From Giardia intestinalis (lineage: Eukaryota): a stretch of DNA of 64,000 nucleotides. This document shows positions 15,983 to 22,765 of the stretch, piece by piece. The notes below the pieces were generated by a model. The model ran no database searches, was not told the DNA's origin, and was given only the letters and a program-made list of their open reading frames with translations. Each line of letters opens with the position of its first letter. Position 1 is the stretch's first letter. The stretch lies in NCBI GenBank assembly GCA_000002435.2, contig CM018793.1. One strand, 5' to 3'. The position numbers were made by a program, and so were the translations under genes.

Positions 15983-17707
15983 CTACGCCTTGCCCCGGCA
16001 GATGAACCACCAGCAGAGGAAGCCCACAAGGCCAGCCACGACGACAACCGCCGCGACGGAGATCCCCGCGATGGCCCCCGTGGAGAGCCCGCTCCTGTTG
16101 GCGCCAGAGGACACACAGGAGGTCCCACTGCTGTCTAGACTGAAGCCACTGTTGCACTCTTCACACACACCGTCCATCACACAGCTCTTGCAACCACCCA
16201 CAGAGCACAGCACACACCCGCTGCCGTCCTTGTTGGGCTTCTTACTACTGTCACAAGAGGTACACACAGCGGGGGTCATACCAGCCCCAGTCAAAGGTGT
16301 CGGGGCTGTACACTGAGAGCAGCCATCCACTCCCACATATGCCTTAGCAGTATCACCAGTGCCTGTTGATGTGCCTAGGGGGTTACCACATGCCAATACA
16401 GACTGATCAGTAGCCTTTGCTTCTGGGACTATGAAGTACCTATTGTTGGCCGCCTCTGTGCATATCCCACTACTATCTGCTTTCTTGCACATATGACTAC
16501 CTGGTACTTGACCAACCTTATAACAGCCATTCATGTACAAGAAGTATCCTGTAGTACACTGTGTACATGTATGACTGGCACAAGTATTAGCTCCTTTACC
16601 AGTATCAGTACATATACCATCAATTGGTACCTTACTGTTATCCCCACAGTATGAGCAATAGTGCTTTGTGTTGCCATTCTCGTCAATTATTATAGCATCG
16701 CAGGCTCCAGATGTCCCCCCGCAGGCAGTCTCATCCTCACAGGTCTTGGTACATGTAACAGGACTGGTACCACTCTGCTTGTAGTTCACCTTACAGGAGT
16801 TGCAGGTCAACGAGTTAGAGAAGGTGCACGTTGCACAACCAGGCACTCCATCTGTTGGGTTATCACAAGAGACACATGTGCCAGGACCACTGCCTTTCAT
16901 GAAGAATCCAGGCTTGCATGTATCACACTTATCATTGCCAGCAGCAGAGCATGTAGCACAATTATCACCACAGGCTGCGCATGTAGCGGTACCAAAGTAC
17001 CCCTCTAAGCATCCACTACAGGTTGGATTGCTATTTCCTGTCTTGGTACAGGTCTTGCAGCCAGGAACACCTGTATTACCGCTAGCCTTGTCGCTATCAT
17101 CGCCACAGGGGATACACTTAGTATTTCCCTCACTTAAAAAGTGCGTATTGCCACTTGCACACTCTCCCTCCGCAACGCACGTCGTCGTCCCGTCTGCCGC
17201 CGTCTTCACCATCTTGCTACTGCTGCAGGTCCTACATTGCGGCTTGCCAATAGTTGCATTGTACTCACAGGTGGCACAGTCAGCTATTCCACATGCCTTA
17301 CATTGGCCTGTTGTCGGGTCTGCATAGTTACCAGCACCGCATCCACTAGCCTCTACACAAGTGTTATCACCCTTCAGGTACTTCCCCTCAACGCATGCCG
17401 AGCATTGATTTTGATTACTCTCTGAGCAGGCAGAGCAGCCCTCTCCGCACTTCTTACACGTATTAGAAACGCTATCCTTAACGTACCCAGCCTTGCACTC
17501 AGTACACGTGGCAGGTCCTGGACTACTAGCTGGCGCCGTGCACTTGAGGCAGTTGGCCACTCCTTTGTTCTCATTCGCTCCCTTGATATCATGACAGAGT
17601 ATGCACTCGCTACCCTTCTCTGATGGTGCAGCCGGGTTCTTGAACAGGCCGTTATCTGCCTTACAAGTAGTGCATACTCCATTACTGGCTGCTGTGCAGA
17701 TATCACT
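15983..17707 (-). pseudogene. VSP (variant-specific surface protein), 5'-truncated tandem copy 1, no ATG or signal peptide
   Basis: Ends in GLVGFLCWWFICRGKA*, has a TM segment and CXXC-rich body. The track ORF 15983..17560 starts at a GTG. The frame is open 49 codons further upstream (WSDICTAASNGVCTTCKADNGLFKNP...) to a TAG inside the GTGATAG repeat of copy 2's 3' region. AGTAAAC polyadenylation signal downstream of the stop. Confidence 0.7.
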
Positions 17708-17760
17708 CCACTATCACCCTCTATCACACACTATCACCCATTATCACCCTCTATCACCCA
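17700..17760. repeat. GTGATAG-family 9-10-nt microsatellite in a VSP 3' region (minus-strand sense GGGTGATAG)
   Basis: Plus-strand ctatcaccc / ctatcacac units x6 between the copy-2 stop and the copy-1 junction. Equivalent blocks at 19522-19570, 21321-21380 and 62248-62300. The units carry TGA/TAG stops in two of the three frames, and the 9/10-nt spacing shifts frames along the block. Confidence 0.8.
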
Positions 17761-17786
17761 CTGTACAGCATTCACTACCTAAGTAC

Positions 17787-21330: not shown

Positions 21331-21406
21331 CTATCACCCTCTATCACACACTATCACCCATTATCACCCTCTATCACCCACTGTACAGCATTCACTACCT
21401 AAGTAC

Positions 21407-22765
21407 CTACGCCTTCCCCCTGCACACGAACCACCAGCAGAGGAAGCCGACGAGGCCCCCCACGACGACGACCACAGCGACGGAGATCCCCGCTATGGCC
21501 CCCGTGGAGAGCCCGCTCTTGTTGACGCTTCCACCAGTGCCTACTTCTGATTCTAAACATATGACTGAACTGCCAGATGATGACACACATTGCTTGCATC
21601 CAGAGATCTTCTCTGAGCACTTCTTGCATAACCCAGCAGTGGTATCGTCACCGTTTTCCTTGTAATACCCAGTGGCACAGGTCTTGCACTTATTAGGGTC
21701 ACCTGCAGTCGAGCACGTAGCACAAGTAGAATGGCACTCCCCACAGGCCCCACCTTGTGCCTGTAGTCCGTTGGCACACGTCTGACATGTTCCTCCCTGT
21801 GCACTACTACAGACCTGCTTACCAGGCTGTCTATCTGTCTGATAGCAGCCGCCGTCCTTGAGGAAGTAACCCTCATTGCATTTTGTACAGGCCCCACTTG
21901 TGATTGTTGCACAGAAGGCTACTCGTGAACTGGCCGCACAGTTGCCGTTCAAGGGGGCTTGTTGAGTGTTCTTGCACTTTGAGCAATATGCAGTTCCTCC
22001 TATCTGAGCCCCACACTCTGCGCATCCATCGTTTGTAGAACTCACGCTGCACTGGTCCATGCACGTGCCCCCATTGACAGGAGTATTAGTATCTGTATAC
22101 TGAAGCATTTTCCCAACAGGACAGGCCGTGCACTGATTGTTGGCCGGTCCAACGCACTCAGCGCACTCAGGGTTGCATGCCTTACACTTCTTGTCACTAT
22201 CTCCGTAGTATCCGCTGATGGCTGTGCAGTCAGGTACGCACTGGTTTGTAGGGGTGAGGTAGTCGCCATCATTACATTTAGTGCAGACCTCGTTGTCGGT
22301 CTTCGGGTTATCGCAGGCCTTGCAGTTGGGCGTGTTGCACGCCTTCTCGACGCACTGGCCCCCGTTCAGGACGTAGGCGGGGTCGCACGCCGTGCAGACC
22401 TCGTTGTCGGTCTTCGGGTTATCGCAGGCCTTGCAGTTGGGCGTGTTGCACGCCTTCTCGACGCACTGGCCCCCGTTCAGGACGTAGGCGGGGTCGCACG
22501 CCGTGCAGACCTCGTTGTCGGTCTTCGGGTTATCGCAGGCCTTGCAGTTGGGCGTGTTGCACGCCTTCTCGACGCACTGGCCCCCGTTCAGGACGTAGGC
22601 GGGGTCGCAGTCAGTGCAGGCCTCGTTCTCGGCCTTCGGGTTTGTGCAGTCCCTGCAGTTGGGCGTGTTGCAGTTTGCACTAGAGCCCTTCTCGTTGTGC
22701 TTTGCCAGCACGGTTGCACAAACTAGGAGAAATCCTATCAACATTAGCCGGAGTACACGTGCCAC
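21407..22765 (-). CDS. VSP, complete (signal peptide, 37-aa tandem repeats x3.5, TM, CRGKA tail)
   Basis: MARVLRLMLIGFLLVCATVLA signal peptide. KACNTPNCKACDNPKTDNEVCTACDPAYVLNGGQCVE repeated. Conserved GYFLKDGGCY motif and GLVGFLCWWFVCRGKA*. AGTGAAT polyadenylation signal 11 nt after the stop. Confidence 0.88.
   Translation of the reverse strand: MARVLRLMLIGFLLVCATVLAKHNEKGSSANCNTPNCRDCTNPKAENEACTDCDPAYVLNGGQCVEKACNTPNCKACDNPKTDNEVCTACDPAYVLNGGQCVEKACNTPNCKACDNPKTDNEVCTACDPAYVLNGGQCVEKACNTPNCKACDNPKTDNEVCTKCNDGDYLTPTNQCVPDCTAISGYYGDSDKKCKACNPECAECVGPANNQCTACPVGKMLQYTDTNTPVNGGTCMDQCSVSSTNDGCAECGAQIGGTAYCSKCKNTQQAPLNGNCAASSRVAFCATITSGACTKCNEGYFLKDGGCYQTDRQPGKQVCSSAQGGTCQTCANGLQAQGGACGECHSTCATCSTAGDPNKCKTCATGYYKENGDDTTAGLCKKCSEKISGCKQCVSSSGSSVICLESEVGTGGSVNKSGLSTGAIAGISVAVVVVVGGLVGFLCWWFVCRGKA
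22275..22675. repeat. 111-bp (37-codon) tandem repeat x ~3.5 inside the complete VSP
   Basis: Near-identical DNA units (ggtcttcgggttatcgcaggccttgcagttgggcgtgttgcacgccttctcgacgcactggcccccgttcaggacgtaggcggggtcgcacgcc...) seen at 22290-22620. Confidence 0.85.

Follow-up and report, generated by a model that had tools for sequence, protein, structure and literature searches.

A chromosome-internal VSP linear array in Giardia intestinalis WB: start-less psiVSP cassettes with intact frames behind a complete head gene

Organization of the VSP array

The stretch of DNA analyzed here (the window, 64 kb in length) carries on its minus strand a complete VSP gene, the head gene, followed head to tail by three start-less VSP copies numbered 3, 2, and 1 (Table 1). 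An earlier note on this DNA had described this arrangement, and all of its main elements were recovered at their positions. The locus is the chromosome-internal VSP “linear array” vsp145-144-143-142 of Adam et al. (2010, BMC Genomics 11:424, PMC2996952) on chromosome 5 of Giardia intestinalis WB, as established by exact protein matches to XP_001704186.1 and XP_001704185.1 and by the entries for vsp142 to vsp145 in Additional file 1 of that study, whose lengths, repeat, initiator, and chromosome are the same as those of the array here. In the catalogue, vsp145 to vsp142 are listed as “LA” (linear array), with vsp145 marked as first. Linear arrays were defined as at least two adjacent head-to-tail vsp units with intergenic regions of 60 bp on average and up to 241 bp, with an initiator and a long noncoding upstream region at the first member and no initiator at the members downstream (PMC2996952). 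The array here consists of four units with short spacers, TAATGTT is found at the head only, and 765 bp of noncoding DNA lie upstream.

Within the 64-kb window, the array is flanked by ordinary genes, encoding a TPH-domain protein, a NEK kinase, and an annexin. An Rfam scan of the entire window yielded zero matches. When synteny was anchored on the adjacent NEK kinase gene, the best non-WB loci, one in an ENA assembly and one in DH, were 87 to 89% identical and had different neighbors; these loci are probably paralogues.

Table 1. Features of the two VSP arrays and their surroundings, in window coordinates.
Feature	Position	Strand	Description
Copy 1 (psiVSP, vsp142)	15983–17710	−	Terminal unit; 575-codon start-less frame ending FICRGKA-stop
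256-nt exact tract	17588–17843	−	Copy 2 3′ end, spacer 3, and copy 1 5′ end
Spacer 3	17711–17786	−	Sequence identical to spacer 1
Copy 2 (psiVSP, vsp143)	17787–19532	−	581-codon start-less frame, WSVICTAAS...CRGKA-stop
Spacer 2	19533–19596	−	Same polyadenylation signal; shorter microsatellite (19533–19562)
Copy 3 3′ 515 nt	19572–20086	−	Matches copy 2 3′ end (17762–18276); exact runs of 370 and 114 nt
Copy 3 (psiVSP, vsp144, GL50803_114121)	19597–21330	−	577-codon start-less frame, WSDICTAAS...CRGKA-stop
148-nt exact tract	21081–21228	−	Copy 3 identical to second-array unit A (60623–60770, +), 39 kb away
Spacer 1	21331–21406	−	ACTTAGGTAGTGAATGC at 21404–21388 and (GGGTGATAGN)n microsatellite (TRF 21321–21382); stops in three frames
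Head gene (vsp145, S2, GL50803_137605)	21407–22744	−	Complete VSP with initiator; XP_001704186.1
Tandem repeat inside head gene	22281–22672	−	111 nt (37 aa); 3.5 copies, 96% matches
Initiator TAATGTT around head ATG	22740–22746	−	Sole PyAATGTT in either array
Noncoding region upstream of head gene	22745–23509	−	765 bp, common to head gene and divergent NEK kinase/ankyrin gene
NEK kinase/ankyrin gene	23510–25294	+	Divergently transcribed from head gene
Second array unit A (vsp146)	60247–62227	+	N-terminal ~100 codons kept but decayed
Second array unit B	62290–64000	+	Start-less (WSVICTTAS...); same junction type (polyadenylation signal plus microsatellite); runs past window end

The head gene encodes a 445-aa protein with a signal peptide (MLIGFLLVCATVLA) and a C-terminal CRGKA, with the stop codon at 21409–21407; its exact database match is an entry named “VSP with INR,” and it matches Pfam PF03302 with E=1.6e-76. 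Additional file 1 of Adam et al. gives vsp145 as LA_TR111, first in the array, with TAATGTT and 445 aa, and records TR111 x3 for it (PMC2996952). The earlier note had correctly called this gene complete but read it from 22765, which is a GTG reached by open reading frame logic; the true ATG lies at 22744, within TAATGTT. In the GenBank S-series, S2 is the head gene, and S6 lies downstream in a different array.

All four units carry VSP hallmarks: a transmembrane segment, CRGKA, and an extended polyadenylation signal. Each ends in ...GFLCWWF[VI]CRGKA and a stop codon, followed by ACTTAGGTAGTGAATGC or, after copy 1, by ACTTAGATAGTAAACGC (15978–15962), where the microsatellite is absent. The VSP-specific extended polyadenylation signal has been given as ACTTAGRTAGTRAAYRY (bioRxiv 10.1101/2022.03.07.483299); ACTTAGGTAGTGAATGC contains the AGTGAAT that had been noticed after the units. 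Copies 1 to 3 have the cysteine-rich CXXC ectodomain of VSPs, each with 70 Cys and 26 CXXC motifs, and copy 2 matches PF03302 with E=1.7e-41. Their earliest in-frame ATGs are all internal. From ATG 21186, copy 3 equals the 529-aa XP_001704185.1, in agreement with vsp144 (LA, no Inr, 529 aa; Additional file 1, PMC2996952); from ATG 19313, copy 2 gives 508 aa, agreeing with vsp143; and from ATG 17212, copy 1 gives 409 aa, agreeing with vsp142. Canonical full-length relatives with a signal peptide have 102 to 105 additional N-terminal residues, close to the ~100 residues estimated before.

The spacers contain 2 to 7 stops in every frame. Counted from the first stop-codon base, the VSP frame reopens after 79, 67, and 79 nt, and the frame offsets between units are 80, 68, and 80 nt, so that each copy is out of frame relative to the preceding unit. 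The microsatellite had been described as a GTGATAG repeat; it is present but degenerate rather than a strict 7-mer, with a TRF period of 10 and the plus-strand consensus TATCACCCAC, equivalent to GGGTGATAGN. At 21330, the frame reopens as TAG-TGG-AGT-GAT-ATC-TGC (stop-WSDICTAAS), and the same sequence is found at 17710. At 19532, the junction reads TAG-TGG-AGT-GTG-ATA-TGC (stop-WSVICTAAS), a slight departure from the sequence given in the earlier note.

A search for [CT]AATGTT in both arrays found the motif at the head gene alone (ATG 22744). No hydrophobic segment was found after the in-frame ATGs of copies 1 to 3, with a Kyte-Doolittle 10-mer maximum of ≤1.77 compared to 2.87 for the head signal peptide. 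Thus, the features of a functional VSP in the GL2.1 annotation, a PyAATGTT ATG and a signal peptide, are present in the head gene only, and copies 1 to 3, having neither initiator motif nor hydrophobic N terminus, are psiVSPs rather than VSPs by the criteria of PMC7000408; such start-less copies have been reclassified as psiVSPs in the present reference annotation (PMC7000408). The Giardia intron 3′ motif (CTRAC..ACAG) is absent from the entire window, and a looser GTATGT...CTRAC..AG pattern had no match in either array region, the regions for which it is reported. An unannotated intron supplying a start, which would have overturned the earlier description, was rejected since no intron motif matched; the copies remain start-less. 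Judged by these features, copies 1 to 3 are firmly predicted not to be expressible as surface proteins, as had been proposed, because they lack both an initiator and an ATG followed by a signal peptide and because the spacers are closed in all frames and the units are offset in frame.

The second array lies 39 kb away in the opposite orientation. The 5′ part of its unit A has no ATG (ASLLIPLF...) and contains two frameshifts. From ...PGSDICTAAS (60524), the unit has 568 intact codons ending in CRGKA and a stop; from ATG 60488, it gives 579 aa, which agrees with vsp146.

Shared tracts and constraint on the cassettes

Exact tracts of 391, 370, 256, 148, and 114 nt stand out against a background identity of 40 to 75%. 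The 256-nt tract is identical to 21208–21463, which runs from the 3′ end of the head gene through spacer 1 into the 5′ end of copy 3, and is a conversion or duplication tract crossing a unit junction. Cassette boundaries are conserved, with the microsatellite and the ICTAAS box upstream and the transmembrane segment, CRGKA, and polyadenylation signal downstream. Since the limits of the exact tracts fall at various sites inside the units and one tract crosses a junction, these boundaries are not obligatory end points.

At the protein level, residues 54 to 412 of copy 2 (~19373–18297; 359 residues) differ at four positions from the full-length VSP XP_037901531.1, which is encoded on another chromosome; the block corresponds to ~1.07 kb of coding sequence, and its flanks are only 53% and 73% identical. 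Among ~130 database relatives, no full-length protein is nearly identical to copy 1 or copy 3, and the longest runs in common are 23 to 54 aa. Read from these shared tracts, the copies evidently take part in segmental exchange with their neighbors, with the second array, and with at least one full-length VSP elsewhere. The exchange between copy 2 and the full-length VSP fits either direction, and the array could be the recipient. Polarity was sought from VSP4A1/CRISP-90, but XP_037901531.1 and VSP4A1 are mutually mosaic, and no direction can be inferred from them. Three full-length WB VSPs and one homologue from DH (assemblage A2) carry GGCYKTS[LQ]WSE[IV]C, with Trp at the position of the junction TGG, whereas ~75 other relatives have ...PGSEIC there. 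The idea that this “WS scar” is a footprint of cassette-to-gene transfer was dropped: the DH homologue has the Ser codon TCT, not AGT, and GC-rich codons throughout, and a link at the DNA level is not supported.

In simulations, the chance that a 575-codon frame stays open after at least 10% random substitutions was ≤0.15% (P ≤0.0015). Copies 1 to 3 and the two second-array cassettes are all open over 568 to 581 codons, which is therefore beyond chance. Among these five, each complete one has 70 Cys, and the CXXC count is 26 throughout. For the cassettes, dN/dS was 0.22 to 0.40 at a dS of 0.7 to 1.5, with synonymous divergence saturated. Central pN/pS was 0.41 to 0.53; of the columns in this region, 44 of 46 with Cys are invariant, compared to 61 of the remaining 265. 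Unit A serves as an internal control: its ~100 codons before ICTAAS are decayed, and the 568 that follow are intact. Low dN/dS and intact frames would also be the outcome of repeated overwriting by functional genes, without any selection on the array.

The frames and the cysteine scaffold of the cassettes may be kept intact by exchange or by selection acting through exchange. The best explanation of the whole locus, and one that we consider probable, is a competent head gene followed by psiVSP cassettes without surface expression, which exchange sequence and would constitute an evolutionary reservoir.

Possible, if rather unlikely, is that the array is a sink, consisting of functionless by-products of unequal crossing-over (“discarded remains”) that stay intact only through overwriting by functional VSPs. 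Adam et al. listed this as an equal alternative (PMC2996952). That copy 2 is nearly identical to a full-length VSP is compatible with it, since this fits transfer in either direction; copies 1 and 3 lack the close full-length partner that recent donation would predict; and the decayed 5′ part of unit A indicates that mutation erodes these loci. However, a sink does not readily account for five cassettes that, despite saturated synonymous divergence, are all open over 568 to 581 codons and have the same number of CXXC motifs (26). Copies 1 and 3 also argue against it through their central regions, which are only 40 to 65% identical to anything else in the window and ≤67% identical to database proteins; this dissimilarity implies that they were not recently overwritten, yet they are intact.

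Transcription of the copies and integrity of the junctions

Strand-specific RNA-seq of WB revealed low-level transcripts from all 178 vsps analyzed, 108 of them without an initiator; the median for initiator-less vsps was 19 FPKM compared to 42 (PMC3610916). Since initiator-less vsps are transcribed at a low level, “silent” is relative. These transcripts, together with abundant antisense VSP transcripts and an old RefSeq record (2007 annotation) in which copy 3 begins at MGVEGC and is a VSP of 529 aa, would be compatible with noncanonical expression of the copies as proteins without signal peptides from internal ATGs, as read-through products, or as RNAs for sense/antisense RNAi-type regulation, the last acting through the conserved 3′ ends of the copies. 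We regard this explanation as quite improbable. The in-frame ATGs are not followed by a signal peptide, inter-unit stops are present in three frames, and the polyadenylation signal of each unit should end upstream transcripts before they read through; the present reference annotation calls such copies psiVSPs (PMC7000408), and the psiVSP arrays of G. muris are essentially untranscribed (PMC7641422). A regulatory RNA role would, moreover, leave the conservation of the cysteine scaffold at the protein level unexplained.

That the junctions are assembly joins, which the earlier note had named as grounds for refutation, or collapsed repeats is extremely improbable. In favor of this, assembling VSP arrays was difficult for the 2007 draft (PMC2996952), and spacers 1 and 3 are identical within the 256-nt tract. 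Against it, gene order and lengths are unchanged in the 2010 catalogue, the long-read assembly has the head gene on a contig of 4.02 Mb, the three junctions differ (spacer 2 has its shorter microsatellite and different first codons), and the junction type, seen four times in the window with sequence variants, occurs another four times in two independent ENA contigs from unrelated metagenome assemblies and is therefore not an assembly artefact.

Possible origin and role of the cassettes

Under the preferred explanation of a competent head gene with exchanging psiVSP cassettes, the head gene is an ordinary expression-competent VSP with upstream noncoding DNA, TAATGTT, and a signal peptide, and a cassette comprises a VSP body from ...ICTAAS, the transmembrane segment, CRGKA, and the polyadenylation signal, followed by a GTGATAG-type microsatellite. 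The cassettes may have originated through a breakpoint at the coding motif (G)GAGTGAYAT, whose similarity to the repeat unit of the microsatellite suggests microhomology or slippage, and may have multiplied by unequal crossing-over via the highly conserved 3′ end. We infer that, over evolutionary time, the array is a reservoir from which the expressed VSP repertoire draws ectodomain sequence. A point against this reading is that the head gene falls in a clade other than that of the cassettes and has only ~140 nt at the 3′ end in common with them, so simple homologous recombination could not move a cassette ectodomain into the head gene.

The array was catalogued in 2010 and already proposed as a silent recombination reservoir, and the current understanding of it is unchanged by our analysis. 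Unexpressed recombination cassettes are an earlier hypothesis for Giardia linear arrays, including the comparison to VSGs (PMC2996952; PMC7641422). We add the breakpoint PGS/DICTAAS and its likeness to the microsatellite unit, the closure of all three frames by the spacer, a quantification of the constraint, exact conversion tracts, among them one that crosses a junction and one that links the two arrays, and the close match of copy 2 to an intact VSP on another chromosome.

The array is of the same kind as other G. intestinalis linear arrays and the psiVSP arrays of WB (Xu et al. 2020, Sci Data 7:38), and it shares with the linear arrays of Adam et al. the head-to-tail order, short spacers, and a first member with an initiator and a long upstream region. 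The psiVSP arrays of G. muris (Xu et al. 2020, Microb Genom 6:mgen000402, PMC7641422) are likewise tandem and without signal peptides; they undergo recombination or conversion with intact VSPs and were read as a reservoir and likened to Trypanosoma brucei and Pneumocystis (PMC7641422). Almost all of the G. muris arrays are telomere-adjacent, with 5 to 23 units ending in GCRGK, whereas the array here is chromosome-internal, has housekeeping-type flanking genes, and contains three psi units ending in CRGKA. Arrays of G. intestinalis are not telomere-associated (Adam 2010, PMC2996952; Xu 2020, PMC7641422).

The likeness to a silent VSG-type donor archive put forward in the earlier note is a published idea; sequence exchange with an intact VSP is seen here. 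As in the silent VSG arrays of T. brucei, promoter-less tandem copies have a short repeat upstream and a conserved 3′ end, and segmental conversion and mosaics are found. Unlike those arrays, the locus is not subtelomeric, and its cassettes are 5′-truncated but otherwise intact, while most array VSGs of T. brucei carry stops or frameshifts. Silent VSG copies become active when they enter a dedicated expression site through duplicative transposition or segmental conversion; in Giardia, neither an expression site nor duplicative activation is known, no expression site is described in PMC2996952 or PMC7641422, and VSP switching is described as epigenetic (PMC2996952) and possibly RNAi-regulated (PMC3610916), not recombination-based.

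VSPs are the antigens that Giardia varies for persistence in the gut, and the WB reference genome holds ~208 psiVSPs alongside 133 intact VSPs. Whether arrays without starts amount to junk or function as a store of sequence is a question already clearly posed in print. The locus is a compact test case for it, with three intact cassettes behind a competent head gene, an internal control in unit A, which is decayed outside the cassette, clear conversion tracts, and the sharing of copy 2. It seems improbable to us that, in clonally growing cells or in an infection, cassette segments are copied into expression-competent VSPs often enough to be measured. If they are, a layer of antigen diversification based on DNA recombination, yielding mosaic VSPs like the mosaic VSGs of T. 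brucei, would lie atop epigenetic or RNAi-type switching, and the start-less cassettes would owe their open frames and perfect cysteine complement to selection on segmental copying.

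A catalogued VSP linear array

Four VSP units lie head-to-tail on the minus strand from 22744 to 15983, and the complete VSP followed by three start-less copies that the earlier note had described is indeed present there. All three downstream open frames end in GFLCWWF[VI]CRGKA and a stop. The head gene encodes XP_001704186.1/KAE8304771.1, "VSP with INR" of Giardia intestinalis WB (4.02-Mb contig), and XP_001704185.1 is copy 3 translated from an internal ATG.

Array units, spacers, and neighboring features, with entries from Adam et al. 2010
Feature	Position	Strand	Description	Catalogue entry
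Head gene	ATG 22744, within TAATGTT; stop 21409–21407	−	complete VSP: signal peptide MLIGFLLVCATVLA, transmembrane segment, CRGKA	vsp145: S2, GL50803_137605, LA_TR111, first in array, TAATGTT, 445 aa
Head internal repeat	22281–22672		111 nt (37 aa), 3.5 copies, 96% matches (TRF); encodes ACNTPNCKACDNPKTDNEVCTACDPAYVLNGGQCVEK	
Spacer (with stop)	21331–21409	−		
Copy 3	21330–19600	−	stop-to-stop open frame, 577 codons	vsp144: GL50803_114121, LA, no Inr, 529 aa
Spacer (with stop)	19533–19599	−		
Copy 2	19532–17790	−	stop-to-stop open frame, 581 codons	vsp143: 508 aa
Spacer (with stop)	17711–17789	−		
Copy 1	17710–15986	−	stop-to-stop open frame, 575 codons	vsp142: 409 aa
Inverted repeat, left arm	14503–15766		starts 217 bp beyond copy 1 stop	
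Inverted repeat, right arm	25425–26688		starts 131 bp beyond kinase stop	
Candidate gene	58711–60039	+	442-aa ATG-initiated ORF	
Decayed 5′ end of unit A	60040–60523	+	ASLLIPLFVVSALAVTCQADKCE; MFQLIPLF... in intact genes	
Second array	60247–64000 (window end)	+	units A and B	

Adam et al. 2010 (PMC2996952) place over half of the WB vsps in linear arrays. Intergenic regions there average 60 bp, and the leading member frequently carries an initiator together with a long upstream region; the initiator is absent from every downstream member, and these members were hypothesized to be unexpressed. This very array appears, under chromosome 5, in Additional file 1 of that work, and copy lengths counted from the first ATG equal the catalogued lengths of vsp144, vsp143, and vsp142. 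The G. muris genome paper (PMC7641422) reports that psiVSP arrays and intact VSPs exchange sequence and explicitly draws the analogy with T. brucei and Pneumocystis. The array is a real, well-formed linear array of psiVSPs (start-less VSP bodies, or cassettes, opening at ...ICTAAS), already catalogued and with its interpretation already published; the silent archive proposed in the earlier note is a hypothesis already in print.

Junctions, breakpoint, and expressibility

Successive units are spaced by 67 to 79 nt. In each spacer the stop is followed by the extended polyadenylation signal specific to VSPs, ACTTAGGTAGTGAATGC, and then by a degenerate microsatellite (period 10 by TRF, unit GGGTGATAGN). 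Copies 3 and 1 resume the frame with TAG-TGG-AGT-GAT-ATC-TGC, copy 2 with TAG-TGG-AGT-GTG-ATA-TGC; the junctions had been described correctly overall, apart from the repeat period and the wording for copy 2. Because the microsatellite unit holds both TGA and TAG and its 10-nt period is 1 mod 3, every spacer carries 2 to 7 stops in each of the three frames and serves as a translational insulator from one unit to the next. Given these stops and the offsets between successive units (80, 68, and 80 nt), translational read-through is excluded. The main-array junctions are not an artifact, since a junction of the same type occurs in the second array and four junctions of the form CRGKA-stop-AGTGAAT-(GTGATA)n-ATATGCACAGCAGCCAGT are found in contigs of two unrelated ENA metagenome assemblies (L001 and L002).

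The downstream copies lack an ATG with a signal peptide, as previously claimed: PyAATGTT is found at the head gene and at none of the downstream copies, whose first in-frame ATGs lie 48, 73, and 166 codons inside the three frames, and no hydrophobic stretch follows any in-frame ATG (Kyte-Doolittle 10-mer maximum, ≤1.77; head signal peptide, 2.87). A start reached through an unannotated intron, the exception the earlier note allowed for, found no support, the Giardia intron 3′ motif being absent from the whole window and a loose intron pattern from both array regions. Full-length relatives with signal peptides carry 102 to 105 extra N-terminal residues ahead of the position aligned with WSDICTAAS. 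Low-level transcripts from initiator-less vsps are present in WB RNA-seq.

Unit A of the second array (vsp146) retains sequence upstream of the breakpoint, reading ...GGCYKTESQPGS before it and DICTAAS after it; the cassette start is therefore the coding motif AGTGAYAT. The breakpoint motif, (G)GAGTGATAT, is a near-copy of the microsatellite unit, and the sequence suggests that junction and microsatellite may have originated by microhomology or slippage. Over the ~100 codons outside the cassette, unit A has lost its ATG and acquired two frameshifts; the 568 codons inside are intact. About 200 nt upstream of its decayed 5′ end are conserved in another isolate (L003, 9787–10000), where the VSP homolog is single-copy, full-length, and in-frame, likewise without an ATG (TAFLLIPLF). 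In P0041, a protein from another assembly, the frame opens instead at an upstream Met, MSRSHLPPVARAALSLRAHDK...

Surroundings of the arrays

A perfect (100%) inverted repeat of 1,264 bp, GC-rich (~0.6), flanks a 9.66-kb segment comprising the whole VSP array and a divergent NEK kinase/ankyrin gene. The 259-aa ORF of its arms has no Pfam match. The repeat could mediate inversion of this segment. Of the two arms, the right one may be the original, since in the DH (assemblage A2) contig L005 arm sequence lies downstream of a related kinase. Syntenic loci sought in other assemblages by way of the adjacent NEK kinase yielded, as best non-WB candidates, L004 (an ENA assembly) and L005, which are 87 to 89% identical, have different neighbors, and are probably paralogs. 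Just upstream of the second array, the 442-aa ORF, likewise without a Pfam match, is a candidate gene only; GC content is 63% over 58000–60000. Public assemblies of Giardia contain several fragments of VSPs or NEKs (P0051, P0080, P0199, and P0202) whose product names are evidently in error, for example "NAD synthase," "Dynein light chain," "SSU ribosomal protein S8E," and "Atp-dependent protease subunit."

Constraint and exchange

Five cassettes and one metagenome copy, compared in pairs, gave dN/dS values of 0.22 to 0.40 (dS, 0.7 to 1.5). The central region has a nucleotide identity of only 40 to 65%; pN/pS there was 0.41 to 0.53, and invariant columns make up 44 of the 46 cysteine positions but 61 of the 265 others. 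Every complete copy has 70 cysteines, and every copy 26 CXXC motifs. When 10% random substitution was simulated, a frame of cassette length stayed open in 0.15% of runs. Overwriting from functional genes alone could mimic this selection-like pattern.

Exact tracts, conspicuous against the divergent background, join the 3′ ends of copies 3 and 2 (370 and 114 nt), units A and B (391 nt), and copy 3 and unit A, inverted and 39 kb apart (148 nt). A further 256-nt tract runs from the 3′ end of the head gene through the spacer into the 5′ end of copy 3 and recurs from the 3′ end of copy 2 through the next spacer into the 5′ end of copy 1; the 3′ end is all that the head gene has in common with the cassettes. 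Residues 54 to 412 of copy 2 differ at only four positions from XP_037901531.1, a full-length VSP that has a signal peptide and is encoded on a chromosome of 1.49 Mb, whereas the flanks of this block are only 53% and 73% identical. No close full-length partner was found for copies 1 and 3 among about 130 database relatives. At residues ~20 to 32 of copy 2 (19460–19500), the peptide SQYIFQNKA is common to VSP4A1/CRISP-90, an experimentally characterized VSP, and absent from XP_037901531.1; these two proteins are mutually mosaic, some 60-residue windows being 100% identical and others about 50%. The idea that intact VSPs carry a "WS" scar of the junction was considered and dropped, having no DNA-level support. 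A donor function goes beyond this evidence; taken together, the sequence comparisons favor maintained, exchanging cassettes over inert debris.
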